This document shows positions 3,566 to 53,609 of a stretch of DNA of 54,276 nucleotides, one piece after another. The stretch lies in the IMG/VR virus record IMGVR_UViG_3300045020_000038, positions 1 through 54,276 of that record, one strand, 5' to 3'. Position 1 is the first letter of the stretch; each line of letters begins with the position of its first letter. The notes under the pieces are model-generated. The model was not told the DNA's origin. It made no database searches and saw nothing but the letters and a program-made list of their open reading frames with translations. The translations under genes and the position numbers were made by a program. This DNA is from a virus. Taxonomy: Duplodnaviria; Caudoviricetes.

Positions 3566-3744
3566 TCGTACATCATCGTAGTTAATACAAAGAAATGGAT
3601 ATCTAGTTTCTGTTCTTCCATTGAGAGATTATATCCTTCCGCGTTACCTTCAGCAGTTTCCAGATCTTTGAATACAGCTACTGGATGGAAGTCATCTCCA
3701 ATCTCCCGCATTACTACATATACCTGTGTAGATTTAAAGGTCAC
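3562..3744 (-). CDS. hypothetical protein
   Basis: 60-aa ORF overlapping both neighbours. Confidence 0.7.
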   Translation of the reverse strand: MTFKSTQVYVVMREIGDDFHPVAVFKDLETAEGNAEGYNLSMEEQKLDIHFFVLTTMMYE

Positions 3745-4957
3745 GATATCTTCCTATCTCTGGTTCAATCAACGTTTCCCAACGATCATGTCTCAACTTC
3801 GGATCAGTATCTTCATCTCCCCACAACTTATTCTTACTCAAATGGAGGAAACGAAGATTATCATAACCGGCTTCATTCACTTTTCCAACACCAAGAATCC
3901 AGTCCGCCTCAGCCTGTTTGCTTGTCTTAGCGTTAGCCACGTTTGCCATGGACAACCAGCGAACTCCCTCACCAGACCCATCTGCCTGGCAGACCCCGAT
4001 GACCGGACAATATGTCTTGGCGAGTTCACGAGCCCAAATGTATATGGATCCGAGTCGCAGATCCTCTCGATCATTGTCAAATCCTTTGATCTTATCGATC
4101 TGATCGAAAACAACGAGGCTCGGCTGGACTTTCTTACAGATGGCCTCAACTTGTTTAAAGTGAATTGACGCACTGTCCTTGAGCTTAATGTTGTCCTTAG
4201 TCGCCTGCAGATATTTCTCACGATTCTCTTCCAGATTACTCAGAAGTTGGGTGTTATCCATTCCAAGAGCAGACTGGTAACACCGAAGCATTACTTCCGT
4301 TCCGACCTGTTCATTGTTAAACCAGAGTACAGGATTCGTAGCTTGCGCAGCCATGAATGTAACTTCCGAAGCCAGGAACGTGGTTTTCCCTGTTTCCGGC
4401 CTTGCAAATACAAACCCAAAATTGCCCTGTCTAAGCGACCCAAGACGTTTATTGAGAGATTCAAGACGCCATCGCAAGCCTTCCACAGCGCGACTTGTAT
4501 TAACGATCTCCACAAGATCACTGCTAACGAAATCATTATCCTCGTCTTCACATAGTTGCTCCGGTGACTTGAGTTGTTCTACCAGTTGTTGATAGTCTTC
4601 TTCCTTACCCCGACCCTCCGCTAGTTCATAAGCAGATACAGATAGTTCCCGTAGAAGTCGGCTACGCTTGAACGTCTCAATAAGTTTTTCAGTCGAGAAA
4701 TCATTTGCATCTACCTGTTTGAGAGCGTCGAAGACGCCTGAGTAGAAATCTACCTTACTACGATTACTGGAGAAATACAGATTAGATAAGTCGTCAACGG
4801 TTAGATTACCGTCGGATTCTGTGGTAGTAAAGTACCCGTCGATGGTACGTACTACAGGATGTAGTTCCTTGGAGAAATCGGATACATCCAGGGTATCTCT
4901 GATCTTATTATAATTCTCTTTACTCAGAAGATATTTTACAATACTTAACTCTATCAG
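3734..4957 (-). CDS. DnaB-like (SF4) replicative helicase with a non-canonical start (CTG at 4957 or the next codon ATA)
   Basis: Walker A ARPETGKT, VVFDQ, GVCQA, KQAEAD; the frame is open 148 codons upstream of the GTG at 4513 with no ATG/GTG/TTG; GGAGGT RBS directly before. Confidence 0.9.
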   Translation of the reverse strand: MIELSIVKYLLSKENYNKIRDTLDVSDFSKELHPVVRTIDGYFTTTESDGNLTVDDLSNLYFSSNRSKVDFYSGVFDALKQVDANDFSTEKLIETFKRSRLLRELSVSAYELAEGRGKEEDYQQLVEQLKSPEQLCEDEDNDFVSSDLVEIVNTSRAVEGLRWRLESLNKRLGSLRQGNFGFVFARPETGKTTFLASEVTFMAAQATNPVLWFNNEQVGTEVMLRCYQSALGMDNTQLLSNLEENREKYLQATKDNIKLKDSASIHFKQVEAICKKVQPSLVVFDQIDKIKGFDNDREDLRLGSIYIWARELAKTYCPVIGVCQADGSGEGVRWLSMANVANAKTSKQAEADWILGVGKVNEAGYDNLRFLHLSKNKLWGDEDTDPKLRHDRWETLIEPEIGRYRDL

Positions 4958-5559
4958 ATATACCTCCCTCCAACTAGTTTCTTATTTTTGATAAAATCTT
5001 CAATAGCTTCGTGAACTTCTTTATTATTAAAAGTTGCTCGTTGCTGTCGAGGTGTTTCTTGCTTGGCAAATTCTCCAAAACCCTCTCCGGCTAATCTATC
5101 ATACTCTTTACAAGCATCCTGGTAATTATAAAAAGGTCCTCGTGAAATAACATTATTATCAATCTTCATATGTACATGCCAGGTATCACTACGAAAATCT
5201 TTTACTACTCCTTTAATACCTGTGAAAGAATTAAATTTCCTTTTCTTGTTTTGAGCATTCTGTTGTGCTGTCGCCAACCTAAGATTGTCCCAGCGATTGT
5301 TGCGTGCATTACCATCTTTATGATCTACATATTCAGGAGGCCATTCTCCTGTCATATAGAAGAAAGCTAATCGATGATAAGAATATGAATACCCTTCAAT
5401 TGTTATACTTCTATAGCCATATTCACTTTCTGTACCAGCAGGTCGTTCTATGTTACGACCTTGTTTTGGAACTAACCACCAGAACAAACCTGTTTCTGGT
5501 TCATACAACAATAGTTCTTTGAGTTCTTCTTGAGTTATCTTTTGTTCTTTATCTGTCAT
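4954..5559 (-). CDS. HNH homing endonuclease with an AP2-like C-terminal domain
   Basis: ITQEELKELLLYEPETG, YHRLAF, VDHKDGNARNNRWDNLR, TGIKGV, GFGEFA. Confidence 0.92.
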   Translation of the reverse strand: MTDKEQKITQEELKELLLYEPETGLFWWLVPKQGRNIERPAGTESEYGYRSITIEGYSYSYHRLAFFYMTGEWPPEYVDHKDGNARNNRWDNLRLATAQQNAQNKKRKFNSFTGIKGVVKDFRSDTWHVHMKIDNNVISRGPFYNYQDACKEYDRLAGEGFGEFAKQETPRQQRATFNNKEVHEAIEDFIKNKKLVGGRYI

Positions 5560-5604
5560 TAAGTATTCACTTATAAATAACCTGAACGGAAGAGAAAACA
5601 AATC

Positions 5605-5628
5605 AGCAGAGCCTTTGATGACTCTGCT
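5605..5628 (-). terminator. hairpin with a T-rich tail just downstream of a promoter
   Basis: AGCAGAG...CTCTGCT stem followed by GATTTGTTTTCTC on the minus strand. Confidence 0.4.
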
Positions 5629-5649
5629 TCAAAGAAAAGAGAAGTAATC

Positions 5650-5682
5650 TAACCTGACACAGTTTATTGGACTTGTCAAGTA
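5650..5682 (-). promoter_or_regulatory. putative promoter TTGACA-N17-CAGGTT with TGTG extension (copy 1)
   Basis: shares taacctgacacagttta and ttgtcaagta with 23905-23937; intergenic, upstream of the HNH/helicase/polymerase operon. Confidence 0.65.
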
Positions 5683-5745
5683 TTTCGTTCATCTTCCCTT
5701 TCCAATGTTACTTATATCTAGTTTACCATATAAATGGATACCTTG

Positions 5746-5895
5746 TCAAGAACTTTCATATCTTACCCTGTCACATCCTACCAAACTTCCATCCGGGTAT
5801 CGGTGGTAACCCGCCTCCGAGGGTATGTTTCTAAGATAGTTACGCCACGGATTAAACACTGGTAGACCTAACATACAACCGTCACACTGGTTAAT
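5746..5895 (-). CDS. small Cys-containing hypothetical protein, possible ATT start
   Basis: (I)NQCDGCMLGLPV...HRYPDGSLVGCDRVRY; ATT overlaps the stop of the upstream gene; an alternative ATG lies 7 codons in. Confidence 0.5.
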   Translation of the reverse strand: MNQCDGCMLGLPVFNPWRNYLRNIPSEAGYHRYPDGSLVGCDRVRYESS

Positions 5896-8652: not shown

Positions 8653-9273
8653 TTACTCCATAACATCCAAGAGATTCTGCACCAACTTTCTTAGTTCCTC
8701 TTTCTCATATCGGAGATATGCATTAGGAGTGGGAATAGTCTCTCCCAGATCTTTCTTGCTAAACAACGTTGAATGTTTCTTTACCGTGGGAAACTCAAAG
8801 ACCATGAATGCCGTCAGTTTCTTTGGGTCATTCTGGACATTATGAATCTCTGTATGTTTTTGAAAGTGTGACTCTCCTAGTTTTAACTCCGTCTTTGATA
8901 CTATCTTTAATCCAATCTTCCTGAGAAACTCCAACTTGATTTTCTTTTCTTTATTTTCTGGATGCAGGGCTGACGTCAGATGATAGGCATTATAATCCTG
9001 CTTATCATAATCCACTTTATAAACCGTATTGACAATCCATCCATGTAATACCAGGAGCTGGCTATCATACAGATGATTATGGATCTGGACATTTGTGGTA
9101 TCCAGATTATCTCTCGGTTCAACTATATACAATCTGATTGTTTGATGTGGTGTGAAATCAAAACACACGTAATTCAAACCAGGAAAATGAAAGTTCTTGA
9201 TGGAATCTTTGACCATCTTATCCAGATTGTGTTCTAGTTGGAGTGAAATCCAATGCTTCCAGAATGAGTTCAT
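8653..9273 (-). CDS. cupin-fold protein
   Basis: IRLYI...IHNHLYDSQLLVLHGWIVN...EIHNV cupin metal motifs. Confidence 0.6.
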   Translation of the reverse strand: MNSFWKHWISLQLEHNLDKMVKDSIKNFHFPGLNYVCFDFTPHQTIRLYIVEPRDNLDTTNVQIHNHLYDSQLLVLHGWIVNTVYKVDYDKQDYNAYHLTSALHPENKEKKIKLEFLRKIGLKIVSKTELKLGESHFQKHTEIHNVQNDPKKLTAFMVFEFPTVKKHSTLFSKKDLGETIPTPNAYLRYEKEELRKLVQNLLDVME

Positions 9274-9278
9274 TTCCT

Positions 9279-9801: not shown

Positions 9802-9821
9802 TTTGGGTTCCTCTCTTTTTA

Positions 9822-20863: not shown

Positions 20864-20938
20864 CTTAGTACTTACCTTACATGAAGTAAGGCTTAAGATT
20901 ACAAACCCTACAATTGTAACTGTAGGTCCTGTAACGCC

Positions 20939-20960
20939 AAAAGCCCCAATTAAGGGGCTT
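20939..20960 (-). terminator. putative intrinsic terminator
   Basis: AAGCCCC-loop-GGGGCTT followed by TT on the minus strand. Confidence 0.55.
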
Positions 20961-20988
20961 AAGGGATACTACTAGAGGGTCTAGTGAG

Positions 20989-21189
20989 CTAACACCAGAC
21001 TACCTTGTTAAAAGAGACATAGCGGGCGTAGATTGGGATTCCACTCCATCCACAAATACGCTCGCGCCAATACCCACGCCCACGCGGACAATCATAGACT
21101 TGATTGCGGACCATTTTGCCAACTCCAATCGACGTAACAGACCTTAAGGTCTGAAGTGGTAAGGGTTTGCTGCAAATGCGACATTCCAT
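20989..21189 (-). CDS. Cys-containing hypothetical protein
   Basis: 66-aa ORF with CRIC...CP...C. Confidence 0.5.
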   Translation of the reverse strand: MECRICSKPLPLQTLRSVTSIGVGKMVRNQVYDCPRGRGYWRERICGWSGIPIYARYVSFNKVVWC

Positions 21190-24061: not shown

Positions 24062-24159
24062 TTGCGTACCTATCCACTGATTAGGGAGGTGATCCCATAT
24101 CTCGTCAGCCGGCCACGTCAGACGTTAACAGGTTGTGGCATCTAACAAAAAGGACAAAG

Positions 24160-26507: not shown

Positions 26508-28796
26508 ATGCCTATTAATGGAACGCCCGGTGGGGCTATGCAAGCGATGCAAGCTGGCTCCCAAGGTGGGGGCTTTGATCCTAACCAGGATCCGTACAAT
26601 CTGGCTGACGTAGCTCAACAAGCGGGCCAACAACAGCAACAGATGAATCAGATGCCGCAGCAGCCGCAACAGCCTGATATCCCTCACCCAGATCAACAAC
26701 AACCTCACCAACGTCTGCGTGGTTTCATCGAATCTGTTAACATCGCTGAAAAGCTGGATGAACAGACCTTGATGAAGATTGGCCATGATTGTGCCGAGGG
26801 GTTTGAAGTTGATCTGATGAGTCGAGATGTCTGGGAACGGAAGATCAATGAATACACTAAACTGGCTCAGCAACTTCAGGAACAACGGACATATCCTTGG
26901 CCTAAAGCCAGTAATGTTAAGTACCCACTCCTTTCGACTGCTGCTATGCAGTTTGCTGCTCGGGCTTATCCTACCTTGGTTCCTTCTGATGGTAAAATTG
27001 TACTGGGGCAAGTGATTGGTAAAGATCCCGATGATGCTAAACAAGATCAGGCTGATCGTATTAGTACTTACATGTCTTATGACATTATGCATCAGATGAA
27101 GGGTTGGGAAGAAGGTATGGATAAACTCCTTATCATGCTCCCGATTGTTGGTACTATCTTCAAGAAAACCTATTGGGATCCTATCAAGAAACAGAATTGC
27201 AGCCATGTATTGATGCCCAAGAATGTAGTGGTTAATTATTGGGCTACCGATCTGTGTGATGCTGAACGGGTCAGTGAAATGATCCCGATGACCAAGCGTC
27301 AGATCAAACAACGCAAGATGAGCAAGTTGTTTTGTGAAGATGTGGATCTGGGAGCTCCTCCGAGCATTCCTTTTGATTTACATCCAAAACAAACTCAGTG
27401 GATGCCTAGTAATGACGACACTACTCCTTATGAAATCATTGAGCAGCATTGTTACTACGATCTTGATGATGATGGGTATGCTGAACCTTATATTGTTACC
27501 TTTCACAGGCAGACTCGTAAGGTTCTCCGGATTACCGCGCGTTTTGATGAAAACACTATGTTGTTTAACGACGATGGTAGTCTGGCTGGGATTGAGCCTA
27601 TTCATTACTATACCAAGTTTGGGTTCATCCCAAGCCCTGATGGGGGTTTTTATGACATCGGCTTTGGCATGCTTCTCGGCCCGCTTAATGAATCAGTTAA
27701 CACCCTCATCAACCAATTGATCGACAGTGGTACACTTAATAACCTCCAATCTGGTTTTATCGGTAAGGGTCTTCGTCTGCGCATGGGTGATATGCGTTTT
27801 ATGCCTGGTCAATGGCAAGCGGTAAATGCTGTTGGAGATGACCTGAAGAAACAGATCTTCCCGCTCCCGACCAAGGAGCCTAGCCCCGTGTTGTTCAACC
27901 TCATGGGCACCCTCATTACCTCTGGTAAGGAACTAGCTTCTGTTGCTGATATCTTCACTGGTAAGATGCCTGGACAGAACACTCCTGCTACCACAACGAT
28001 GGCCACAGTTGAGCAGGGAATGAAGGTCTTCACCGCGATCTATAAACGGATCTATCGGGCTTTGGCCGAAGAGTTCTGTAAACTCTTTAAGTTAAATGCA
28101 ACTTATCTGAATCCCCAGACCTATAGTGCTGTGGTTAACGAACCTATTGGACCAGATGATTTTGATGAAACCACGTATCGAGTTATCCCGGCGGCTGATC
28201 CCAATGCAGTCAGTGCGCAGGAGAAACTGCAGAAAGCACAGGGTCTGCTTGAACTGTTGCCTATTGGAGTACTCGATCCTGTACAGGTTATCACACGAGT
28301 GCTTAAAGCACAAGAACAGCCGAATTATGAGCAGTTGTTCAACCAGGCAGTTCAACAGACAGGTCAAATGCCTCCGCCGCCACCTGACCCGAAGGCGCAG
28401 GAACTACAGATGAAAGCTCAGGCTCAGCAACAAGATGCTCAGCTTAAGATGGTAATGGGTCAACAAAAGATGGAACTGGAAGGACGTAGCGCTGAACAGA
28501 AGATGGCTATGCAAGCTCAGGAACATCAGCAGGAAATGCAGTTCAAGCAACAGGAAGCACAGATTGGTGCTCAAGCCCAACTTCACCAGACACAAGCCCA
28601 GATTCAGGGTGAATTGATGAAGAATAAGGCGGAAGCCCAGATGCATCAACAAACGTTGCAACATGGCGAAGAAGATCATAAAGCTCAGTTGCAGCATGGT
28701 GAAGAAGCCCATAAGGCCACCATCCAACAGAAGAAGGAGACTTCCAAATTAGCAGCCCAATCCAAATCTTCGCCGACTGGCGCAAAGAAGAAGTAA
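26508..28796 (+). CDS. portal protein (P22-like, long Gln-rich C-terminal coiled coil)
   Basis: follows TerL; PWPKASNV, GFYDIGFG, NQLID, TATTTMA motifs; 762 aa. Confidence 0.9.
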   Translation: MPINGTPGGAMQAMQAGSQGGGFDPNQDPYNLADVAQQAGQQQQQMNQMPQQPQQPDIPHPDQQQPHQRLRGFIESVNIAEKLDEQTLMKIGHDCAEGFEVDLMSRDVWERKINEYTKLAQQLQEQRTYPWPKASNVKYPLLSTAAMQFAARAYPTLVPSDGKIVLGQVIGKDPDDAKQDQADRISTYMSYDIMHQMKGWEEGMDKLLIMLPIVGTIFKKTYWDPIKKQNCSHVLMPKNVVVNYWATDLCDAERVSEMIPMTKRQIKQRKMSKLFCEDVDLGAPPSIPFDLHPKQTQWMPSNDDTTPYEIIEQHCYYDLDDDGYAEPYIVTFHRQTRKVLRITARFDENTMLFNDDGSLAGIEPIHYYTKFGFIPSPDGGFYDIGFGMLLGPLNESVNTLINQLIDSGTLNNLQSGFIGKGLRLRMGDMRFMPGQWQAVNAVGDDLKKQIFPLPTKEPSPVLFNLMGTLITSGKELASVADIFTGKMPGQNTPATTTMATVEQGMKVFTAIYKRIYRALAEEFCKLFKLNATYLNPQTYSAVVNEPIGPDDFDETTYRVIPAADPNAVSAQEKLQKAQGLLELLPIGVLDPVQVITRVLKAQEQPNYEQLFNQAVQQTGQMPPPPPDPKAQELQMKAQAQQQDAQLKMVMGQQKMELEGRSAEQKMAMQAQEHQQEMQFKQQEAQIGAQAQLHQTQAQIQGELMKNKAEAQMHQQTLQHGEEDHKAQLQHGEEAHKATIQQKKETSKLAAQSKSSPTGAKKK

Positions 28797-28981
28797 CTGT
28801 TGCTGTGTTTGAATACCTGAAGACACTACGTGATACAGCCCTTCAGGACCTAGAGTTTAATGCTGGCAAAGATGCCCTACATGACCGCTGGAATGCGGGC
28901 CTCCTTGCTGGAATTAATGAAGTGCTCAACATGAGAGCAGATTCTATTTTAGACGAGGAGAGTCAAGAAAATGACTATTAA
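28748..28981 (+). CDS. 77-aa post-portal protein, ATT start
   Basis: AAGGAG-8 nt-ATT; (I)SSPIQIFADWRKEEVTVAVFEYLK...ENDY; fills the portal-GroES gap. Confidence 0.7.
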   Translation: MSSPIQIFADWRKEEVTVAVFEYLKTLRDTALQDLEFNAGKDALHDRWNAGLLAGINEVLNMRADSILDEESQENDY

Positions 28982-38304: not shown

Positions 38305-39756
38305 ATCGCTACTAATCCTTATTTCACACAATTACATACACAGCGTTTTTCTTTTATTGGATCTCCCCAACAACGGGATGGTACAGCTACAAAAGATCAA
38401 CGTTTTGTGAATATGTATCCGGAGATGATTAAAGCTCCTGTTACGGATGGAAAGAAATATTTTCTTAAGAAACGTCCAGGGACGAGTGCTTTATTTACGC
38501 TCGGCGCAGGTCAAGGCCGAGGAACTTTTTATTGGCAAACAAACGGAAATTATTTATCTGTTGTTGGTAATGTACTTTATTCTAATTCGACCGCTATTGC
38601 TTTCCTTACCACCGGAAGTGGTCCTGTCGGATTCACAGAATTTCGTACACCTGTATCTGACTATATTTTTCTGTGTGATGGCACTCATGGATATACAATT
38701 ACAGTTGGAAATGTTGTTACCCTGATTACCGATGCTAATTTTCCTAGCCCACATATTCCACGACCAGTCTTCTTGGATGGATATATTTTTCTAGGTCAGG
38801 CGGGCAGTCAGGATATCATAAATAGTAATCTGAATGACGCCACAACCTGGCCCATCGATGGGTTCATCAGTGCAGAAATGTTCCCAGATAACTTAGTTGG
38901 ATTAGCAAAAGTACAGAACTACATTGCTGCAATCGGTGGAGAATCCATCGAGTGGTTCTACGATAACGCCAACGCAACGGGCAGTCCACTAAATAGAAAT
39001 GCACCAGCCGTCTCCCAGTTGGGTTGTCCTGCTATGCAGACAATTAATCAAACGGAAATGGAATTGATCCTGGTGGGCCAGACTGCAAACGGTGGTAGGA
39101 CCGTATGGGTCATTAATGGATTCCAGCCGACAGAAATTGCAACTGAACCAGTCCGTGAGGCTCTGGATTTGGAGGGGACGGGTATTGTAAATGCTACCGC
39201 GTTCACGATCCAATGTTCGGGACACAAATGGTATGTCCTTAATCTTAAGACAAACCAAAGAACTTTTGTCTACGATTTTGAAGAACAGATGTGGCATGAA
39301 TGGGGATCGATGAGCAATAATGTTTTGTCAGGTTTTGTATTTGACTATGCTGCAGATTCTGGAAATGGTTCTCCTCTACTAATCAGTCAAAATAATGCCG
39401 GACAAGCCTGGATTTTGAGTCCATCCAATTATACGGATGGGGGTGGAAATTTTGAATGTCTAGTAGTTACTAGTAAGATTGATTTCGATACAGTGATGCG
39501 CAAACGAATTTTCCGGCTATCTCTTGTAGCCGATGGTCCCGATAATGATGTACCTGTACCGATAACTGTATCATGGACGGATGATGATTATAATACCTTT
39601 ACTCCTGGAACAATTCTAAATTTAAGTGGTGGTTATTCTACGATAACTCAACTAGGTTATACACGGAGAAGGGCTTTCCAATTTATCTATATTCAACCCT
39701 TTCCTCTTCGAATGGAATCTTTTGAATTAGATATCATCCAAGAAGTGAGGCGCTAA
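38305..39756 (+). CDS. tail nozzle / P22 gp10-like DNA stabilisation protein, probable ATC start
   Basis: N.YPE, KKRPG, FLDGY, SIEWF, TFVYD...WHEW, LG.TRRRAF; the frame is open from ATC 38305 (GGAG RBS) with no ATG/GTG/TTG until 38407. Confidence 0.82.
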   Translation: MATNPYFTQLHTQRFSFIGSPQQRDGTATKDQRFVNMYPEMIKAPVTDGKKYFLKKRPGTSALFTLGAGQGRGTFYWQTNGNYLSVVGNVLYSNSTAIAFLTTGSGPVGFTEFRTPVSDYIFLCDGTHGYTITVGNVVTLITDANFPSPHIPRPVFLDGYIFLGQAGSQDIINSNLNDATTWPIDGFISAEMFPDNLVGLAKVQNYIAAIGGESIEWFYDNANATGSPLNRNAPAVSQLGCPAMQTINQTEMELILVGQTANGGRTVWVINGFQPTEIATEPVREALDLEGTGIVNATAFTIQCSGHKWYVLNLKTNQRTFVYDFEEQMWHEWGSMSNNVLSGFVFDYAADSGNGSPLLISQNNAGQAWILSPSNYTDGGGNFECLVVTSKIDFDTVMRKRIFRLSLVADGPDNDVPVPITVSWTDDDYNTFTPGTILNLSGGYSTITQLGYTRRRAFQFIYIQPFPLRMESFELDIIQEVRR

Positions 39757-46000: not shown

Positions 46001-48107
46001 TGGAGATTTTAAGCAGATTGTAAAGGATAGTGAAGGTCGAGTGGTAGCAGTACTTGGACATAACAATCGTACTGCCCTTGGAGTTATTGCTAAGCGGTTT
46101 CAGGAACTACATCCGGATGGAGAGAATCTGGATATGGGTAAACCAATACTCCGTAAGGGTAGTGTAGATGATCATACCTTCAATGGCTTCATGAACATCC
46201 TGAATGAACTGTCCAAGACCAATGCAGATATTGATCGGATTGTACAGGCGTACCATGATACCCAGATGGCCAGCACTAACAAACTGAGCCAGATGGCTAA
46301 CCGGGGTAAGTTTAAATCTAATCCGGAAAATACCGTTGGTGGGGCAGAGGGAAGTAAACTTTGGCAGTCGATGCAACAGAATGCAATCGATGGTGGGAAA
46401 CAACAGTTGAAGTATCTAGATTCCGTGAATCGCTGGAGTGAGTTTCAACAAGCTATCAGCAAGGCTGAGAACTTCATTAAGGATCCTACTGTAGATGCAC
46501 CCAATGCTAAGGCTGTTAGTCAAGACTATCTGGACAACCAGATGCATCGGAACCTAGGTGATCTGAATAAGTTTACCAACAGTATGGTAAATGGTATTGC
46601 TGAAGTGACTGGTGTAGGTCCTACCCAAATGCGACAGATGGCTAACTTTACCAAGACTGGTTTGCTTAATATGTTTGTTGGTCTCGGGAAGTTCAGTCAT
46701 AGTCTTGTTACACTACTTCAACCGATCTTTGGTATTCCAATGGTGAATAGTGTAATGCGAGCTGATGGTGCTGCTTTTGGTAAAGCTAGTGTCTTGTCGA
46801 TCTTCAAATCTTTGATGTCGAATAAAGATATGTTGCAATCCCTGGCAACCAAACAACCCATTAGTGATCCATTTGTACGAGCAGCGAATGAGTATGCACG
46901 AGCTAATGATAGCTTCAATACTAGTCAGTTTAATATGGGTACCATTGCACATCAACCATCCAAACTGGGTAATGCTCTTCACATTAATGTGACTGTTCCT
47001 GAATCAGGTACTCGGGCATTTACGTATATGTATTATGCCCATATGCTGAAGGATACTGTTGGTGATCAGATGTCTGATAAGGAGATCTTTGGTACCGCCC
47101 ACAATGCTGTACAAAAAGTAATGGCGGACTATAGTCGAGAGGCAGCAGCACCCATGTTTAACAAGATGGGTTTCCTGGGTGATCTTACCCGGATGTTGAC
47201 GACCTTCAAGATGAATCAGATCAGCCAAGCAGCCACTGCAGGTAAGATGTTTGGTCAAGGCAAGGTAGGTCCGATGGTAACAATGCTTGCAACTAGTATT
47301 GCTGCTTCAGGAGTTCGTGGTTTTATTGGATACAACATTGCCAATGGTCTGTTGGGGCAACTTACCACATGGGCCACCAAACAAGGCTTAATGCAGCAAC
47401 CGACCAACTTGGATCAAATCCTATTGCATTCGCTTCATGGAGTGAATAAGGGTCTTGCAGATGCTCTGAATTTTGGGATGACATCGGGTCTTGGTATTGA
47501 TATGACAGGATCTCTGTCTCATGCGGATGACATTCCTGACGATCCTCTAGGGACTCTTTTGCCAGAAGGTAGTCCTGTGGCAAAGGTGGTGGGTTCTGTA
47601 GCGACTCTAGCAGAACATCCCAACAAGCAGAATGCGAAAGCGGCTCTGTATGATGCATTACCTAACTCTATGAAAGGGGTTATGGAGAATATGGCGTATA
47701 CGGATAAGAATGGTAATTACTATGATCCCCACACCGGGAATCTGGTAGCTAACCGCACACCCACTGATCAGATGAAACGGAACTTCTCATTCCGTCCGCT
47801 GGACGAAAGTAAGATGCGTCTGCAGGCTACAGTTGGTGCTGAACAGAATCAACAACTGGAAACAGTGAAGTCTGAGATTATTAAACGGGCTTTAAGTGAT
47901 TCCGATTCTGGTAGTCTTACCCAACAAGCTATGCATGATTATGCGAATAGGTATTACCAGGCTGGAGGAGATCCTACTGAACTAGCTAATAAACTAGCTA
48001 CTCATATGGGAGTTAACAAGCATCTCAACATTGAACAACGTGAAGCCGGTATGGCTAGTGGCCTAGCTGGTGCAGAACGTTATCAACGCGCACAAGGACT
48101 TAAATGA
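43008..48107 (+). CDS. large internal virion protein with an N-terminal lytic transglycosylase domain
   Basis: QETGG, SPKGATGSMQVEPATA, AYNMGPG, ET.AY SLT motifs; 1699 aa. Confidence 0.85.
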   Translation: MADLSQLSNDQLTQLYSITKQETGGASDKSTITSPKGATGSMQVEPATAGDPGFGVRPSDGSPEDTARMGRDYFLALSQHYKDPTTAAIAYNMGPGRTDKWLENGANPADLPTETLAYAHNFNQNTQQATQQQQPQAPQQQGGGDLSSLTDDQLKQMYKAPADDKNSLWNNIKGLGLQAANLAVAGIETPAILGAGAIGATGRALEGQPLAANLAKTVENVQKNYGQFSAEAGLNKAGIDTSGVQDTAGYQLPNEAMNYIGNTLPGQLAAAGTAGSPFSAAQTLSPSQQAVAKPALQLAELATPFLHRGGGIVAEGAGAPAEAAAKLAGDDAAAPSANQFTGPPRNAADFGPRRSIIVDSQGRAVFQGQEPTTEQLLADAAQRRAEAFMGPNAGPPAPARPSFPPNMGPNEGPQQMFPGNMGANEGPQIPNAQAFARGIMQPVEPNMGPQRPPITVDRQGVASTNLGNTQEQMALQGQQAGLEQAQRNAGLAQLQGQGELFPQGTEGQASPFNPNRLSEDYQQPFNPRNPTNLRQGQLDFTQAQTPDIFQVNREGEAGTPQQHEEVAPYRDATQRRMDDMSRQSPEQLDMFNPIDQRTFDQFGPNETPRSLNPDEFAETVQNLAAKDGTRFPLPEDMEGAYSRYLDTVRDDQGGLFDRATIAKKFVEAAADESKSRMVADHPIVKANQDRVNRLQASIDQAGGVAPPGMRDALAQAQRTLEKSQENIGKQMPKDPRLPYEKDGVVNMFTFGNLPEMFKSIGAVLKGLHGVVFKTLDRMIPASRNLDSFAKIAQQGIKNFVNREANRDWSQTVNEKPMDQLGKIPGMRNAVDSLNPHAQDDLSPEELKAQFNQATDLSDSKVGNFLRNNVLQGGLMLSDFSRHPLVKYTTDSVAKAFRSADKWARENLLNKQTGLGQMIKDMPLDHFTEIRTLMEANEGTREFTPSELKNRGFTDEQIKYYQRSLELQKEAFTKFNTGRQAAGLPPVTPRIAHIAGYFTGDFKQIVKDSEGRVVAVLGHNNRTALGVIAKRFQELHPDGENLDMGKPILRKGSVDDHTFNGFMNILNELSKTNADIDRIVQAYHDTQMASTNKLSQMANRGKFKSNPENTVGGAEGSKLWQSMQQNAIDGGKQQLKYLDSVNRWSEFQQAISKAENFIKDPTVDAPNAKAVSQDYLDNQMHRNLGDLNKFTNSMVNGIAEVTGVGPTQMRQMANFTKTGLLNMFVGLGKFSHSLVTLLQPIFGIPMVNSVMRADGAAFGKASVLSIFKSLMSNKDMLQSLATKQPISDPFVRAANEYARANDSFNTSQFNMGTIAHQPSKLGNALHINVTVPESGTRAFTYMYYAHMLKDTVGDQMSDKEIFGTAHNAVQKVMADYSREAAAPMFNKMGFLGDLTRMLTTFKMNQISQAATAGKMFGQGKVGPMVTMLATSIAASGVRGFIGYNIANGLLGQLTTWATKQGLMQQPTNLDQILLHSLHGVNKGLADALNFGMTSGLGIDMTGSLSHADDIPDDPLGTLLPEGSPVAKVVGSVATLAEHPNKQNAKAALYDALPNSMKGVMENMAYTDKNGNYYDPHTGNLVANRTPTDQMKRNFSFRPLDESKMRLQATVGAEQNQQLETVKSEIIKRALSDSDSGSLTQQAMHDYANRYYQAGGDPTELANKLATHMGVNKHLNIEQREAGMASGLAGAERYQRAQGLK

Positions 48108-48688
48108 ATACCAACAATCTAACTTATAGCCCGAACGGTTTTAAGCTCACAGAGCAATTCGAGGGTTTGTCCCTGACGGCTTACCAGGATGTAGCCGGTG
48201 TATGGACTAATGGTTATGGGAATACTCACGGAGTTGTTCCTGGTAGTACCATTAGTTTTCAACAGGCTCAGAATGATCTCGCGAGCAACATCGAAGGAGC
48301 TGAGTATGTTGTCAACCGTGTAGTTACTGTGCAACTCAATCAGAATCAATTTGATGCATTGGTGGATTTCGTATTCAATCTGGGAAGCGCTAACTTTCAA
48401 TCCAGCACCCTTCTCCGGAAGCTCAATGTGGGAGATGTATCTGGCGCTAGTGCTGAGTTTCCTAAGTGGAATCATGCGGGGGGTGTAGTAGTAGATGGAT
48501 TAACGAGACGAAGGCTCTCGGAACAAGCCCTTTTCAATACACAAGTGCTCGTGGAAAGCCCACCAAACACTACGACTGTATCTACTGGGATAGTAACCCA
48601 ACCAGTTGATCCAAGCCCTACGGTTACGTCGGTAGTTTCGGATATACAACAGGTAATCACTGATCTTCAAAATAAATTCTCCAGTTAA
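48104..48688 (+). CDS. endolysin, GH24 lysozyme with a C-terminal extension
   Basis: FEG.SLTAYQDVAGVWTNGYGNT, NQNQFDALVDFVFNLG, GLTRRRLSE. Confidence 0.93.
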   Translation: MNTNNLTYSPNGFKLTEQFEGLSLTAYQDVAGVWTNGYGNTHGVVPGSTISFQQAQNDLASNIEGAEYVVNRVVTVQLNQNQFDALVDFVFNLGSANFQSSTLLRKLNVGDVSGASAEFPKWNHAGGVVVDGLTRRRLSEQALFNTQVLVESPPNTTTVSTGIVTQPVDPSPTVTSVVSDIQQVITDLQNKFSS

Positions 48689-48718
48689 AAGAAAGCCGCC
48701 CTTAAGGCGGCCTTTTTT
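48686..48718. terminator. bidirectional intrinsic terminator between the convergent arms
   Basis: AAAAGAAA-GCCGCC-CTTAA-GGCGGC-CTTTTTT. Confidence 0.85.
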
Positions 48719-48851
48719 ATACTTCAACTACATCTTTATACCACAAAATCCGCAGGACTCCGAGATCCAGACAACCAATAAATCCCATCTGCTCATCTTC
48801 TACATATTCAATACCAAAAGCTAAACCATGAATAAACTGGAACACTATCAT
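48717..48851 (-). CDS. 44-aa hypothetical protein
   Basis: GGAG RBS; MIVFQFIHGLAFGIEYVED...DLGVLRILW. Confidence 0.65.
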   Translation of the reverse strand: MIVFQFIHGLAFGIEYVEDEQMGFIGCLDLGVLRILWYKDVVEV

Positions 48852-48881
48852 GTCGCTACGCTCCACCGCGATCTGCGTCGC

Positions 48882-50789
48882 TCATAAGATGTCACAACTC
48901 CCCGAAGTACAGGCGAACTCTTGGGCACCATTCGTAGTGTCTTCATTCGTCTCATAGTTATCAAACTCTACCCAAGGTATCTTTGGGAACGATGTTCGAA
49001 GTTCATTATACTTTTCCTCCGAGATATCCTGGTATGGCGCTTGTTGATATACGTGATCATTGTGAGGTAGGAAAGAGACTCCACCAATTTCATCCAGATG
49101 TTTATACACCCATGCACCAACTTCAAGCCACTCATGTTCCCTCACGTACACAGTAATACTTGGGTTATGCTCACACCAATGACGCTTAAAAGATAGGTAA
49201 TGTTCCAACTGTTGGATCGCAGTACGGTCCGATCGGTTAACACTACCAGCAGGAGCAGCCACTGGAAAAGAGAAAACAAGATTAGAGCTATTCGTAACGT
49301 CCACTTCATATGGGACTCCTTTCTCCTGCATGAATACTGCAAGTGGATCTTTTACATCAGCTCGGACAGTACGCACATAATGACTATTATGGCGAGGGTG
49401 GATCCCACTAGCAGAGTCCACCAACTGAGATACAGTGCCACTAGGCTTAACAGTAGTAATAGCAGCACTAGGATTAATCCCCAGCTTTGCAGCCCATTCA
49501 GCATTCGTTTGAATAGTTTCATTCTTTAGTCCGGTGAGTAGATCCGCAAGATCAGTGCCCCGATCATGGCCGCTAAGGATAGGATTATCCATAATGCCAG
49601 TAAGAGATACCCCCAACAAACGTTCGTCTTCCGCATTTACTTTCCATTGCTTTCGGATGTACCGGAAGTCTGTGAGTGTTGATTGGAACGTCCCAAGGAT
49701 TGTAGCGAGCCTAACCTTATCGACAAGTTCTTTGCTAGTATCCGATTGTCGGACAACGACTTCTGTAAGGTTACAAAAACCGAAGGGTCGGAGAATAATC
49801 TCCCCGCAAGGGTTTGTTCCAAAGTCGTGATCAACTTCTCGGCGTCCAGTAGCTGCTGCTTGCTTCTTTGCAGATACCCGGTTATATATTCCACGTTCGC
49901 CTGATTTGCTTTCATAGAGAGCATGCCATTCCTTCATAAAGATGCCAACATCGGGCTTTTCAGTATACGCTACAGAATTATTGGCAAGAGCGCGGTGAAC
50001 AGAACCATCCCACCAAGCACCATTCTTGGCGTTCCGCATACGTTCATCCGTGAGATTAGACAGGCTAATGAGGGCGCTACGACGAACCCCACCAACCACA
50101 ACCACCTGTGCCACTTTACATACCAGGTCATGACATTCTATTGAGTTGAGCTTTCGGCCCAAGGCACCCTTGAATAGTTGCTTAGTGAAGTTGAATAGTT
50201 CCACCAAAGGAGCAGGACCACTTGCTCGGCCTCCGAAAGTTTTGAGGCGCGCTCCTGAAGGTCGGATTCGGTCAACATCAAGTGACGGAGATTGTCCTGA
50301 ATAAAGGAGGGCGATGAGTTGGCGAAATGCCGAAGCCCAACCCTGCTTAGAATCTGCGACAACAATATTTGTTTCCGAATCGTAAATGCGCTCCGGAACT
50401 TCTGGAAGTTTATTAATGTATTGTCTTTCAACACTGAATCCTACTCCAGTACCATTCATTAGAATGTACATGATTTCATCGAAACACTTCTGATCCTGAA
50501 TAGGAATATAGGAACAGTTATATCCTGCGATGTTATCCCGTTCAAGAGCCGGACCAGCCGTCATCAATGCCCGCATACTGGGCATTACCTCCAGACCATG
50601 AATAGCAGTATAAATACTATCATAGGGGAAAAGATCGCCAAACCTATTAGCCCAGAAATCACAATACCGCTTAACCGTTTCATGCCAATGTTCCCTTCGG
50701 CCTTCTTTATCTAGCCACCTTGCGTAGCGGCTCTTATACACATAGTGTTGTAGATCGTTCAATATTAATATGTCCCTTTCCAATACCAA
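48882..50789 (-). CDS. nrdJ: class II (B12-dependent) ribonucleotide reductase (start probably TTG about 50762)
   Basis: MPSMR, YNCS, GGVRRSA, TNPCGEI, FCNL, TVKPSGT, C-terminal CTSGSC; no beta-subunit gene present. Confidence 0.9.
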   Translation of the reverse strand: MVLERDILILNDLQHYVYKSRYARWLDKEGRREHWHETVKRYCDFWANRFGDLFPYDSIYTAIHGLEVMPSMRALMTAGPALERDNIAGYNCSYIPIQDQKCFDEIMYILMNGTGVGFSVERQYINKLPEVPERIYDSETNIVVADSKQGWASAFRQLIALLYSGQSPSLDVDRIRPSGARLKTFGGRASGPAPLVELFNFTKQLFKGALGRKLNSIECHDLVCKVAQVVVVGGVRRSALISLSNLTDERMRNAKNGAWWDGSVHRALANNSVAYTEKPDVGIFMKEWHALYESKSGERGIYNRVSAKKQAAATGRREVDHDFGTNPCGEIILRPFGFCNLTEVVVRQSDTSKELVDKVRLATILGTFQSTLTDFRYIRKQWKVNAEDERLLGVSLTGIMDNPILSGHDRGTDLADLLTGLKNETIQTNAEWAAKLGINPSAAITTVKPSGTVSQLVDSASGIHPRHNSHYVRTVRADVKDPLAVFMQEKGVPYEVDVTNSSNLVFSFPVAAPAGSVNRSDRTAIQQLEHYLSFKRHWCEHNPSITVYVREHEWLEVGAWVYKHLDEIGGVSFLPHNDHVYQQAPYQDISEEKYNELRTSFPKIPWVEFDNYETNEDTTNGAQEFACTSGSCDIL

Positions 50790-50903
50790 TAACCATTAAA
50801 TTCTTTCAGCTTAATATAAGGAAGCAAATCAGGATAAGGAAAGCGAGGTGCTTTAATTACAAAGTAACTATGTCCCATCCATTGTACTTCCCAGAAGTAG
50901 ACT

Positions 50904-51101
50904 TCAGTCTTCTTGGTCTTCCAGTTTAGACGCTGGGCGATTGGAAGTATCCTTGCCTTCAAGATATTCTTCCAGAATTTCTTTAACTTTAGCATTGTGA
51001 ATATAGTTCCGTACCAAGAAGTCCTTGATTAGTTCATCCGCTTCAGAATCCCGTACTTCATTGGTCATCTTTCGTTTCGTCTTGAAATCAGTCTTCTTCA
51101 T
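50904..51101 (-). CDS. hypothetical protein
   Basis: packed operon; start uncertain. Confidence 0.55.
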   Translation of the reverse strand: MKKTDFKTKRKMTNEVRDSEADELIKDFLVRNYIHNAKVKEILEEYLEGKDTSNRPASKLEDQED

Positions 51102-51279
51102 CTTCGTCGAAATACTCCAGAAGCTGGTCATACTTTTCGATTACCTGGTCTGCTAGAAACTCCACCAATTCTTCACTGGTAATATCCAGCAGTTCTAGAA
51201 TGGTTAGCTCGTCAAGCTGACTCAGCCTCTCCATCATTTCCTGCAGTGTTCGTTCCGTTATTGTCATTTTTGTAGTCAT
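51088..51279 (-). CDS. acidic hypothetical protein
   Basis: LDELTILELLDITSEELVE; GAGG RBS. Confidence 0.75.
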   Translation of the reverse strand: MTTKMTITERTLQEMMERLSQLDELTILELLDITSEELVEFLADQVIEKYDQLLEYFDEDEED

Positions 51280-51565
51280 CTTCCTCGTAGTACATATCTA
51301 ACCCCAGCGCAGAACCAATGGTATATTCCAGGGTAGCCCCCGCACTCTCTTGCCATCCAATAAGCATATACATCGCTTCACAATGAATCAGTGCCTCGAT
51401 ATCCTTGATCATACATTCTTTCCAATCCGCTTTTGGATCTGGATTAATGTCGACCGGATTGACAACCTCCCACCCATCATATCGTAGATCATCTGCCACA
51501 GAATTGAAGGCATCAAAGTTCATACCTTCGTAACCAGTCATCGGTCCAGCAATATAGATGCTCAT
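51212..51565 (-). CDS. DUF4406 / nucleoside deoxyribosyltransferase-like protein
   Basis: IYIAGPMTG, VVNP, GWQESAGATLE. Confidence 0.85.
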   Translation of the reverse strand: MSIYIAGPMTGYEGMNFDAFNSVADDLRYDGWEVVNPVDINPDPKADWKECMIKDIEALIHCEAMYMLIGWQESAGATLEYTIGSALGLDMYYEEDDYKNDNNGTNTAGNDGEAESA

Positions 51566-52116
51566 TACTTGTCCTCAATCGTATAATGTTTGGGGAATTT
51601 ATCCTTATGATTATTTTTTATCTTTTTTACCAAAGGAGTATATTGTTCAATCAATTTCTGATATCCTTCTCCCCTCGTCTGACGATCATCTACAAGTTTT
51701 CCAGTACTTTGTGCATCTACCAGAATAGCCAGACAAGCCAGAGCATGAGCAAGGTGAGGAACCCCGCTGTCATCAGCATTATCCTCTCCTTCAAACCAGG
51801 CATCCAGATGACGCTTGCAGGCATCCACATAAATACTAGAACGCACACCAGCATGCCTCCAATTGGAGCGCCCATATTTACACATCCCGTCGAGTAGACC
51901 TAGAGTACCAAATATAGTAGCACTAGCGGGCCATAGATGAAGAGGTAGTTTATCACTACCTATAACATCTTTTGGATTAGAAGGTTTCATCAAAAGATTC
52001 TGACCCTCTTGTTGGTTACTCCATTCAAGGAGTTCTAGTTCTTGAATGCCCATATTAATATGCGGTAATGACCAAAGGTTTATCGGTGGCAGCTTTAAGT
52101 TTTTCCAGTCTATCAT
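51565..52116 (-). CDS. DUF5664 dATP/dGTP diphosphohydrolase-like protein
   Basis: NPKD.IG..KLPLHL, G..KYGRSNW, RHL.AW.EGED, HLAHA. Confidence 0.85.
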   Translation of the reverse strand: MIDWKNLKLPPINLWSLPHINMGIQELELLEWSNQQEGQNLLMKPSNPKDVIGSDKLPLHLWPASATIFGTLGLLDGMCKYGRSNWRHAGVRSSIYVDACKRHLDAWFEGEDNADDSGVPHLAHALACLAILVDAQSTGKLVDDRQTRGEGYQKLIEQYTPLVKKIKNNHKDKFPKHYTIEDK

Positions 52117-52297
52117 TTAGATCCAGGATAGCCATAGAGAGAACATGAAATGTGGTTGCATCAGCTGTCTGCCAATCTTCTAGATCCTTGGCATACACCA
52201 GAGCTCCCCCAGCCCCATGCATCAACTCTTCAATCCGTTTATAATCGGACGCATCCATGCGTGCCGAACGAGCTGTGCTCTTATCAGTTTGATCCAT
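52055..52297 (-). CDS. hypothetical protein
   Basis: GGAG RBS before ATG 52297. Confidence 0.6.
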   Translation of the reverse strand: MDQTDKSTARSARMDASDYKRIEELMHGAGGALVYAKDLEDWQTADATTFHVLSMAILDLNDRLEKLKAATDKPLVITAY

Positions 52298-53051
52298 ACT
52301 TACGCTCCAGATAGGGGAGACTAATAAACATTTCATCGAATTCGCCGTCATCTACTTCATTGAGCATAAAGGCACCTCGCCAGTGTTTATTACCCTGTGG
52401 TCCTAGATAATCTTCATCATGTTCATAACATGAACCTGCAATGATCGATGCGATACGCCGACCATCTGCCCGGTATCCATAAGCTACCTGTCGACCTTGT
52501 TGATGGCCTGCAATACAACTCATGTGTTTTTTGTTAAGAGTGAGTTGAGCACTTGAGATAGGACGGTTGCTAACACCGGTGACAAAATAATGGCTGTAAG
52601 CAATACCATCAATAACAACCACGTCAAGAAACGGGTGTACTTCCCACCCATAATCGCTGTAACCCAGGTCATCGACACTAATAGTCCCATCGAGTTTAGG
52701 ATCACCATTAACCACGCGATCAATTCGATTCTCGTGGTTACCGAGGGTAAGAACCATTCGAGGCTTGTACTGACGTTTACCATTCTTTCGCTGCCTATCG
52801 TTGTGTTCCTTAATAGGCTTCAGAAGGTGCTCCATTGCTTTATGGCTTGCTTCCACGTCAGCGATATACCGACGGCCTTCGAACGCCTTTTTACCAATAT
52901 CGTAGCTAGACAAACTAGCCATATCGGCGAAGTCCCCAATATTAATAATAATATCAGGCTGATGGTCACAGATATAATTACCAATTCGTGTAAGATAATC
53001 ATAACTGTGACCAGGTTTTACTTGACAATCTGGCAAAATAAAATGTCGCAA
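52284..53051 (-). CDS. calcineurin-like metallophosphoesterase
   Basis: PDCQ, GDFAD, LGNHE, SHY, GHQQ. Confidence 0.9.
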   Translation of the reverse strand: MRHFILPDCQVKPGHSYDYLTRIGNYICDHQPDIIINIGDFADMASLSSYDIGKKAFEGRRYIADVEASHKAMEHLLKPIKEHNDRQRKNGKRQYKPRMVLTLGNHENRIDRVVNGDPKLDGTISVDDLGYSDYGWEVHPFLDVVVIDGIAYSHYFVTGVSNRPISSAQLTLNKKHMSCIAGHQQGRQVAYGYRADGRRIASIIAGSCYEHDEDYLGPQGNKHWRGAFMLNEVDDGEFDEMFISLPYLERKYGSN

Positions 53052-53053
53052 GA

Positions 53054-53245
53054 TTATTGCTCCGTGTCGGGCATTTCGTAAATGTCGAAGCCCTCATGTT
53101 CTAGTGTTGAAACAAAGGGAACTGCACCAGCTTGTATGATAGCTTCCATCCCCATCTCAATCACAAACGCTAGTTCCTTTCCTTCGAGCACTCCTTGGAA
53201 TACTACACTTCCATTATCTTTTTCTGTTACATGCTTAATGTGCAA
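53054..53245 (-). CDS. hypothetical protein
   Basis: TTG 53245 behind GGAGGT; MHIKHVTEKDNGSVVFQG... Confidence 0.75.
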   Translation of the reverse strand: MHIKHVTEKDNGSVVFQGVLEGKELAFVIEMGMEAIIQAGAVPFVSTLEHEGFDIYEMPDTEQ

Positions 53246-53609
53246 ACCAGACCTCCGGAATCGTGTCGATTGTTGCCCATTCAATCCCATGCTTATCACA
53301 GTACTCACCGTATGTAGTCTTGGAGACTCGGCTCAGCTTATTATTGGGATTCTGGAAAACGAGATAGACCGTTACTTCAGGATGCTGTTCCCGGATATGT
53401 AGGTGCTTGGCTCTATCTGCTGCTCGCCACAGACCTTTGGTTTCTATATAGACGTTCTCTTTTATTTTCCAGTCTGGGTTATAGGTATGTTCTACCAGAT
53501 ATTTCAGCTTGTTAGTTTCATATTCTAACTGAGGATATCGGGTGTGAAACTCCTGCTCAAATTTACTCTTGTACGGTAAGGTCGAGACTCGTTTCTTTTT
53601 GCGTGTTAT
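53235..53609 (-). CDS. T7 endonuclease I-like Holliday junction resolvase, ATA start (absent from the ORF track)
   Basis: (I)TRKKKR...YKSKFE...LEYE...HTYNPDW...YIETKG...VFQN...KTTYGEYCDKHG...IPEVW; AAGGGGGG RBS; no ATG/GTG/TTG anywhere in the frame. Confidence 0.9.
   Translation of the reverse strand: MTRKKKRVSTLPYKSKFEQEFHTRYPQLEYETNKLKYLVEHTYNPDWKIKENVYIETKGLWRAADRAKHLHIREQHPEVTVYLVFQNPNNKLSRVSKTTYGEYCDKHGIEWATIDTIPEVWFAH

Follow-up and report, generated by a model that had tools for sequence, protein, structure and literature searches.

Candidate near-cognate start codons in five genes of an uncultured soil podophage and their recurrence among its relatives

Near-cognate initiation of translation, in which codons such as AUU, AUA, AUC or CUG stand in for AUG, GUG or UUG, has been documented chiefly in a few bacterial genes. 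A preprint by Hecht et al. gives the AUU codons of pcnB and of infC, the gene for initiation factor 3 (IF3), as the only two confirmed non-canonical starts in Escherichia coli, and reports that AUU, AUA, AUC and CUG reporters in that bacterium yield about 0.1–3% of the AUG output (bioRxiv 10.1101/063800). In an optimised initiation region in vitro AUA is about equal to AUG and AUU is weaker, and non-AUG starts are more sensitive to nutrient limitation and to guanosine tetraphosphate (ppGpp) (PMC5499595). The sigR gene of Streptomyces likewise has a natural non-canonical start, a GTC that is repressed by IF3, so that sigR is a translational control point through this factor (PMC5472188). The present analysis concerns five genes of an uncultured soil phage, those encoding a DnaB-like replicative helicase, a zinc (Zn)-finger protein, a small protein whose gene follows and overlaps the portal gene (the post-portal gene), the tail nozzle and endonuclease I, which appear to start at CTG, ATT, ATT, ATC and ATA, respectively. 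They lie in IMG/VR record IMGVR_UViG_3300045020_000038 (Duplodnaviria; Caudoviricetes), a complete virus record with direct terminal repeats; its 54,276 bp are the whole stretch of DNA that was analysed and are called the window below.

The five phage genes would share with infC and pcnB a start of the AUU kind behind a Shine-Dalgarno (SD) sequence, discrimination by IF3, and an output that is reduced or regulated. They differ from these two in number, as an 86-gene genome has five of them and near-cognates make up about 8% of aligned first codons clade-wide, and from infC in conservation, the codon being unconserved among orthologs save in the post-portal gene; most orthologs of the other four have ATG. 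The phage products (helicase, nuclease, nozzle and small proteins) are not IF3, and autoregulation of the infC type is therefore inapplicable. The reporters of Hecht et al. carried the same four near-cognate codons; theirs were engineered in E. coli, whereas those of the phage belong to natural genes and have been kept over long divergence. The sigR case is that of a single regulatory gene with another codon and a demonstrated IF3 response (PMC5472188). What is found here appears to be an unusually dense variant of known near-cognate initiation that is wider than one genome. The reading that we favour, with a probability of roughly 0.8, is that the five codons are genuine SD-placed starts read by the initiator formylmethionyl-tRNA (fMet-tRNA) with an output lowered by IF3, and that such starts are a heritable and repeatedly re-evolved setting in this clade of phages.

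First codons of the five genes

Related loci were fetched from IMG/VR and comprise 80 centred on the helicase gene (L005–L084, 98–46% identity), 16 around the nozzle gene and four around the post-portal gene; five further records were added. For the first-codon test the tblastn alignment of each locus was projected back to residue 1 of the query. One near-identical IMG/VR record (the twin, which figures as L005, L087, L101, L106 and L122) shows strong mosaicism relative to the window, its helicase being 98% identical and its post-portal and terS-like genes 100% identical, its nozzle just 66%. A megablast search with 6 kb against GenBank phages gave no matches. By protein the nearest named phages are the uncultured "Manatee Spring" phage MW202697 (50%), Alcaligenes phage vB_Af_QDWS535 (helicase, 47%) and Methylophilales phages MEP401/402 (Zobellviridae; 40%). 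Alcaligenes and Methylophilales are thus hosts of distant relatives that are in culture. The five genes and their putative initiation sites are as follows (nt, nucleotides; aa, amino acids; ORF, open reading frame).

3734..4957, minus strand: DnaB-like replicative helicase, putative start CTG 4957; Pfam DnaB_C, and phrog_19 aligns with residues 2-376
4962..4971, minus strand: SD sequence of the helicase gene, GGAGGGAGGT, within the 3' end of an upstream HNH ORF; the same in L005
9568..9801, minus strand: Zn-finger gene, 77 aa with two CxxC motifs, putative start ATT 9801; SD sequence GAGAGGAA at 9808-9815
28748..28981, plus strand: post-portal gene, 77 aa, putative start ATT 28748, 49 nt within the portal gene; SD sequence AAGGAG at 28734-28739
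38305..39756, plus strand: tail nozzle or hub, PF11134 and phrog_578, putative start ATC 38305; SD sequence GGAGAG at 38294-38299
53235..53609, minus strand: endonuclease I, PF05367, putative start ATA 53609; SD sequence AAGGGGGG at 53615-53622

Each site was read directly, and the five codons and their SD sites lie where the first-pass annotation of the window had put them. Its claim that none of the five genes has an ATG, GTG or TTG that would give the full frame stands insofar as the conserved N-termini need the near-cognate codon; an in-frame GTG in the post-portal gene (28805) had been overlooked. Use of downstream GTGs would delete 148 conserved residues from the helicase (GTG 4513, the earliest ATG, GTG or TTG of the frame; the lost part is the DnaB-type N-terminal region), seven from the Zn-finger protein (GTG 9780, the only nearby canonical codon; the first CxxC would be among them), 19 from the post-portal protein (GTG 28805, which would leave 58 aa) and 34 from the nozzle (GTG 38407, its earliest canonical codon), and the endonuclease I frame (53235..53654, minus strand) has no canonical start at all. 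The motif of an SD sequence before a near-cognate codon does not discriminate, since 318 of the 3,996 near-cognate coding-strand triplets have an SD match of at least 5 nt at a distance of 3–12 nt; this is chance level, and the evidence for the starts thus rests on orthology. In all five genes the alignment of orthologs, a check that the annotation had proposed, maps the first codon of relatives to the near-cognate codon.

The helicase frame (3734..4981, minus strand) is open for 415 codons, and the core of its SD sequence, GGAGGT, lies 4 nt ahead of CTG 4957. The 5' end of the homologous gene is visible in 77 of the 80 loci; in most of them the codon that matches the CTG, or the one before it, is ATG or TTG/GTG. 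The closest non-identical relatives read TTG-ATA-GAA (L006) and ATG (L007) there, and in sister lineages the codon after the helicase start is ATA or ATT. The TTG and ATG at the aligned codon make the CTG of the window homologous to the start of these relatives and ATA 4954 the conserved second codon. An ATT, ATA or CTG occupies the first position in 18 of the 77 loci, behind an SD sequence of the AAGGAG type and with no canonical codon nearby. The helicase gene of GenBank entry MW202697 is similar in having AAGGAG, 8 nt and then ATA-ATA; its annotated coding sequence has been cut to an internal ATG and is 42 codons short. The annotated helicase ATGs of QDWS535 and MEP402 lie no more than two codons from CTG 4957.

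Immediately upstream of the helicase gene, and overlapping it, lies an ORF that is an insertion seen in the window and the twin alone:

4954..5601, minus strand: HNH homing-endonuclease ORF, Pfam HNH_3 (5e-16) and phrog_99; its TGA overlaps the helicase CTG (CTGA)

TTG 5601 is the first canonical codon of this frame, as judged from frame reading alone. The 3' end of the HNH ORF provides the helicase SD sequence and its stop codon overlaps the helicase start; the helicase leaders of other relatives differ. Between window and twin the two ends of the ORF align (about 55 nt and about 95 nt) and the middle (5048-5585) does not, which indicates that the two phages carry different or strongly diverged inserts at one place. 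The overlap does not force the CTG, since the HNH frame (ATC TGA) would tolerate ATG or TTG synonymously. One might speculate that the helicase CTG is linked to immunity of the homing-endonuclease target.

In the Zn-finger gene GAGG lies 8 nt ahead of ATT 9801 (GAGAGGAA, 7-8 nt), and no canonical codon occurs between this ATT and the in-frame stop at 9856-9858. Its 5' end is visible in 52 loci, and in 48 of these the codon that matches the ATT, or its predecessor, is ATG or GTG, most commonly as ATG-CGN-TGY (M-R-C-x-x-C). The remaining four have ATT; they are L008–L010, with a leader as in the window, and L030. The twin (L005) has ATG behind a leader unlike that of the window.

The post-portal gene has AAGGAG 8 nt ahead of ATT 28748, and this ATT is kept in four of six relatives (L106, 100% identical; L107, 82%; L108, 75%; L109, 60%), the last three of which have an in-frame TAA four codons upstream of it. 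The two others, L088 and L089, are near-duplicates that contain the gene without the ATT and have an in-frame ATC three codons upstream. GTG 28805 reads GTC or GTA in L107, L108 and L088. Synonymous third-position changes show that past the portal stop this is a coding frame. The portal frame over the start reads AAA-TTA-GCA; a change of ATT to ATG makes TGA in this frame and a change to ATA makes TAA, so that just ATT or ATC fits a full-length portal protein. Constraint on a start codon by an overlapping gene fits the data at this site, which is only one of the five.

GGAG is found 7 nt ahead of ATC 38305 in the nozzle gene. The start of the gene reads ATG-(A/S)-T/V-N-P-Y-F-T-Q in 11 of 13 close relatives, and ATC takes the place of the ATG in L085 and L086; the twin, whose helicase is 98% identical, has ATG. 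ATG 38300 was considered as the nozzle start and rejected, as it is out of frame, would have an SD spacing of 2 nt, and the orthologs read ATG/ATC-A/S-T-N-P in the other frame.

Residues 4-122 of endonuclease I align with positions 5-129 of the 145 in profile phrog_945, and AAGG and a run of six Gs (G6) precede ATA 53609. The aligned codon is ATG in L103 and L104, ATT in L102 and ATA (with the G6 run) in the near-identical L101; in L102, at 72% identity, the ATT stands behind AAGGGAG and 8 nt. A 9-codon ORF that begins at ATG 53635 has a TAA that overlaps ATA 53609, and this ORF is absent in L102. A miscall of G7 as G6 (53615-53620), which would hide ATG 53635 as an in-frame start, was considered and rejected, the G6 being the same in the twin and in the contigs that three studies provide. 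A programmed frameshift from an out-of-frame ATG is likewise contradicted, since the orthologs do not extend upstream of the near-cognate codon. At 53256/53257, close to where the gene ends at its 3' side, contigs of two other soil studies have 37 extra letters and are divergent beyond that point.

The whole window sequence is present in one soil-metagenome run. The twin, which comes from a different metagenome and has single-nucleotide polymorphisms (SNPs) near the sites, has the same CTG 4957, ATT 28748, ATA 53609 and G6 run. The first-pass annotation had named ATG at these sites as an observation that would count against it; a Logan contig of run X1, which spans 34300-54276 at a depth of 33, has no differences from the window and no gaps in this span. 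The comparison was of assembled contigs over 34300-54276, a span that takes in the nozzle and endonuclease I sites, and X1 is probably the source sample, which makes its contig an independent assembly rather than an independent sample. Contigs of two other studies span 53257-54276 and differ there in ten letters, with no gaps.

Start codons across the clade

The codon aligned with the first codon was read by one script for 22 gene families of the window, in the replication modules of the 80 loci centred on the helicase gene. The 451 positions comprise 339 ATG, 30 GTG, 33 TTG and 35 near-cognate codons, and 14 are unclear. The near-cognates are ATT (23), ATA (8), ATC (2) and CTG (2); the scripts looked for these four codons alone, and no variants at the second position (AAG, ACG, AGG) came to notice. 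The 19 families that start canonically in the window, and hence were not picked for the finding, contributed 14 near-cognates in 314 positions, or ten without the calls that have a distant canonical codon upstream. T7-like phages served as a control; they too are podophages whose genes are compactly arranged and SD-led and include those for a nozzle, endonuclease I and a helicase of the DnaB family, but the identical script, applied to 28 T7 genes in 32 IMG/VR loci, found 543 ATG, 29 GTG, two TTG, at most three near-cognate and 15 unclear codons in 592 positions. An in-frame ATG lies upstream of two of the three control near-cognates. Near-cognates are thus enriched in the clade, 35/451 vs 3/592 giving a Fisher p of 1.5e-10 and 14/314 vs 3/592 a p of 6.5e-5, values to be taken as descriptive, given that related loci lack independence and that the T7-like control is less diverged (69–100% identity). 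Their frequency is roughly at least ten times that in the T7-like phages, and 21 of 58 distinct genome fragments carry at least one.

A class-II glutamine amidotransferase (Pfam GATase_6/7/4) provides a case in which the near-cognate start seems functionally necessary. In L022, L028, L037 and L039 its gene begins ATT-TGY or ATC-TGT behind a strong SD sequence; the catalytic cysteine must directly follow the initiator, and no canonical codon lies upstream. On the other hand, the 21 families of the structural arm besides the post-portal and nozzle genes show no near-cognates (of the four kinds looked for) in 129 distinct contexts.

In a FastTree phylogeny of the 77 helicases 19 rows are near-cognate, and at least 11 changes between near-cognate and canonical codons are needed; one clade is near-cognate in 12 of its 17 rows over branch lengths of 0.1–0.3. 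The near-cognate state of the helicase gene is thus both recurrent and persistent. It is associated with strong SD sequences: when each distinct helicase context is counted once, the mean length of the longest SD match is 6.06 nt for near-cognates, 5.31 nt for GTG/TTG and 3.61 nt for ATG, a comparison biased by the best-SD near-cognate codon having been taken where several were possible. A match of 5 nt or more occurs in 16 of 16 near-cognate, 10 of 13 GTG/TTG and 8 of 28 ATG contexts. Nine phylogenetically independent pairs of near-cognate and ATG helicases gave 6.3 in the same direction and none in the opposite one (median sign-test p = 0.03). Mutation pressure toward AT was rejected as the cause of the near-cognate codons, since the near-cognate loci have a GC content of 42.7% vs 39.6% in the others (p = 4e-4) and ATG is the start in the relatives richest in AT.

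The literature searched (supplements were outside the search) yielded no account of near-cognate starts spread across a phage clade. The clade constitutes a natural data set on the trade-off between start codon and SD strength, and on the constraints that overlapping frames place on start codons, and lends itself to work on start-codon stringency. Common phage gene callers generally consider only ATG, GTG and TTG, so that near-cognate genes are expected to be truncated or missed in databases.

Proposed initiation mechanism and competing explanations

We infer that fMet-tRNA initiates at the five codons with a lowered output, low dosage being the selected effect. Ordinary SD pairing 4–9 nt upstream would position the 30S subunit at the near-cognate codon, and initiator fMet-tRNA would read AUU, AUA and AUC with a third-position mismatch and CUG with a first-position mismatch, so that the proteins should still begin with fMet. 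Because IF3 proofreading penalises mismatched complexes, less protein would be made per mRNA than from AUG, with the size of the penalty presumably set by the strength of the remaining initiation region. In this clade a given first codon drifts among ATG, TTG/GTG and ATT/ATA/ATC/CTG, the weaker codons being paired with stronger SD sequences. Local circumstances add to this in two of the genes: the CTGA overlap with the inserted HNH ORF would permit translational coupling of the helicase, and the overlap with the portal frame is the local cause of the post-portal ATT.

The first-pass annotation had proposed that the codons either keep dosage low or form a timer, in which a phage effector relaxes IF3 fidelity during infection. 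The former is compatible with all of the findings and agrees with the reporter output of about 0.1–3% of AUG published for these four codons; the latter, with its effector, found no support. Low dosage is plausible for a helicase, a junction-cutting nuclease and small regulators. Several points weigh against the reading of the codons as starts with a selected low output, among them the non-independence of the loci, the lesser divergence of the control and the choice of best-SD codons given above. The nozzle is a structural protein, for which low dosage is less obvious than for the enzymes. In seven of the 35 near-cognate calls a canonical codon lies in frame some distance upstream; five further candidates, all of the 15377 family, were rejected as false because of an ATG four codons downstream. 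Clustering of near-cognates by genome is not significant (p = 0.10–0.22). Finally, the five SD sites of the window (4–6 nt exact, spaced by 4–9 nt) do not exceed in strength the SD sites of its ATG genes (mean about 4.0), so that SD compensation is seen in the helicase family alone.

A relaxed start-codon stringency, native to the host or imposed by the phage, as might arise from an altered IF3 or initiator tRNA, would leave the five codons as starts and make them nearly neutral; we regard this as possible but rather unlikely. It would agree with the enrichment over the T7-like phages, in which TTG and GTG are also less common (31/592 vs 63/451 in the clade), with the spread of near-cognates over more than a third of the genome fragments (21/58) and the frequent changes of state in the helicase gene, and with the concentration of near-cognate loci in a GC band of about 41–48% instead of in the most AT-rich relatives, which suggests an effect of sub-clade or host over one of mutation bias. 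However, the stronger SD sequences at near-cognate starts imply that these codons are still costly, and their absence from the 129 contexts of the other structural families implies that their use depends on gene class and is not uniform. Nor do the genome collections point to a host; their 12 matches are all phage contigs binned in metagenome-assembled genomes (MAGs) of many phyla, labelled from Ktedonobacterales to archaea, and are uninformative in this respect. It may tentatively be proposed, with well under even odds, that the clade or its hosts run at low stringency and that 5–8% of the genes, mostly replication enzymes, use AUU, AUA, AUC or CUG with a near-optimal SD sequence. If so, the start codon would be a freely evolving rheostat, a variant of host IF3 or initiator tRNA or an IF3-weakening phage factor would be implied, and, should the enrichment stem from proofreading that is relaxed in the host or in infected cells, the initiation regions of the five genes would be ready-made probes of it. 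A timer, with a phage effector that lowers IF3 fidelity in infection and so switches on the near-cognate genes together, is very improbable. IF3 is the known gatekeeper for such codons (PMC5499595), which is circumstantial. At least 35 of the 42 early proteins belong to no known family, which leaves room for an effector; no kinase, ADP-ribosyltransferase or IF-like Pfam domain was found among the 62 proteins scanned, and searches of the window with ARAGORN and for Rfam RNAs found no Rfam RNA and no tRNA, and hence no initiator-like tRNA of phage origin. The T7 protein kinase has been reported to phosphorylate initiation factors, again a circumstantial point. The affected genes, however, lie in both the early replication arm and the late structural arm, and they are not a conserved set, the record with the 98% identical helicase having ATG in the Zn-finger and nozzle genes. 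The same codon flips among ATG, TTG/GTG and near-cognates across relatives, the post-portal ATT is accounted for by the frame overlap, and the near-cognate helicase starts of relatives stand behind promoter-like, AT-rich early-gene leaders.

Ribosomes that finish an upstream ORF might instead restart nearby; which codon serves as the start would then be less important, and de novo initiation at near-cognate codons would not be needed. The helicase CTG overlaps the HNH stop, the post-portal ATT lies 49 nt within the portal gene, the 9-codon ORF ends in a TAA that shares letters with ATA 53609, and the Zn-finger and nozzle starts are 21–30 nt past an upstream stop. Such proximity is shared by nearly all genes of this compact genome, though; helicase ATT and ATA codons of relatives stand behind long AT-rich intergenic leaders without an upstream ORF, and the small ORF ahead of endonuclease I is missing from L102. 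Reinitiation in E. coli moreover still needs initiator tRNA and is depressed by overproduction of IF3 (PMC2268962). A start that overlaps or abuts the stop of an upstream ORF, as is expected of translational coupling, is present in the helicase and post-portal genes and is not general, and termination-reinitiation is an improbable explanation of the five starts. The view that the codons are artefacts or signs of decay (sequencing or assembly errors, a G6/G7 miscall, dying genes, or true starts at downstream canonical codons) is largely refuted. An extra G in the G6 run would indeed bring ATG 53635 into frame, ATG 38300 lies in another frame 5 nt before the nozzle ATC, and four of the five genes contain downstream GTGs. 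Against this, the same G6 and ATA occur in a record from another metagenome that differs by a nearby SNP, the second assembly agrees in every letter over its span, and the contigs of two more studies have no gaps across the endonuclease I site. Orthologs start at the near-cognate codon itself, and the coding sequence past each site is conserved, with third-position changes. All of the non-canonical codons seen are among the four best near-cognates, which were also the only ones looked for, and downstream starts would remove the helicase N-domain, the CxxC pair and conserved N-termini.

Other features of the window

The genome is compact, and the clade to which it belongs consists of uncultured podophages. 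Genes for replication and nucleotide metabolism make up a minus-strand arm that runs from about 23,500 to 1 and on via 54,276 to 48,882; the plus-strand arm (24,133-48,688) encodes the terminase, portal, capsid, SU10-type adaptor, nozzle and a 1,699-aa protein. Several small early genes occur in only one of the window and the twin (10271-10606, 8656-9279 and 5638-5891 in the window). Two further candidates for near-cognate starts were considered, neither of which was retained:

5746..5895, minus strand: possible sixth case, 49 aa, with ATT 5895 and a weak SD sequence; it possibly starts at ATG 5874 or is no gene
24085..24099, plus strand: decoy, a perfect GGAGGTGATC (10-nt SD) followed by ATA 24097; the real start is ATG 24160

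The sixth case had been offered as a weaker one by the first-pass annotation. It is not supported; besides the in-frame ATG 5874, the segment is missing in the twin, and neither the protein collection nor the 80 loci centred on the helicase gene yielded a homolog. ATA 24097 was rejected as a start because it is the codon matching ATG 24160 with which the orthologs begin (M/V-A-L-S/T-D). The element itself, 24085-24106 on the plus strand and about 65 nt upstream of this terS-like ATG, consists of GGAGGTGATCCC, the full complement of the 16S 3' end, and then ATATCTCGTC, and is not a start site; a similar GTGATCCCTTATCTCGTCC lies upstream of the terS-like ortholog in L123 and L125. A 40-codon frame without a canonical start (20999..20877, minus strand) was also rejected as a gene. 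It contains a GC-rich hairpin, GCCCC-TTAAT-TGGGGC, and then a run of Ts, and more probably serves as an intrinsic terminator that separates early genes.

It had been suggested as well that several replication genes use TTG, which is partly borne out. TTG 53051 was confirmed; TTG 1440 turned out to be part of a -35-like hexamer, in that the minus strand at 1380-1440 reads TTGACA, 17 nt and TAGAAT (a -35/-10-like pair). Many relatives have TTGACA...TATAAT at the same place, and the orthologs start about 20 codons downstream at the ATG of the window. In the gene for a class-II (B12-type) ribonucleotide reductase (50762-50789, minus strand) the TTG nine codons below the first TTG aligns with TTG in L011 and ATG in L006 and L007, and the protein probably starts there, nine codons downstream of 50789.

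The minus strand at 11475-16128 carries a cluster with a class-II glutamine amidotransferase, a phiEco32-like COOH-NH2 ligase and a peptidase C26/class-I GATase, and other early proteins match Amidoligase_2, RimK/ATP-grasp and dGTP_diPhyd_N; together these resemble a module for the hypermodification of nucleotides or DNA. The DNA polymerase, of family A, is split between two genes (1418-3565, minus strand). Its 3'-5' exonuclease and the beginning of the polymerase domain are encoded by 3565..2435 and the remainder of the polymerase domain by 2146..1418, with two small ORFs in between, and the record of a Methylophilales phage is annotated in the same way.

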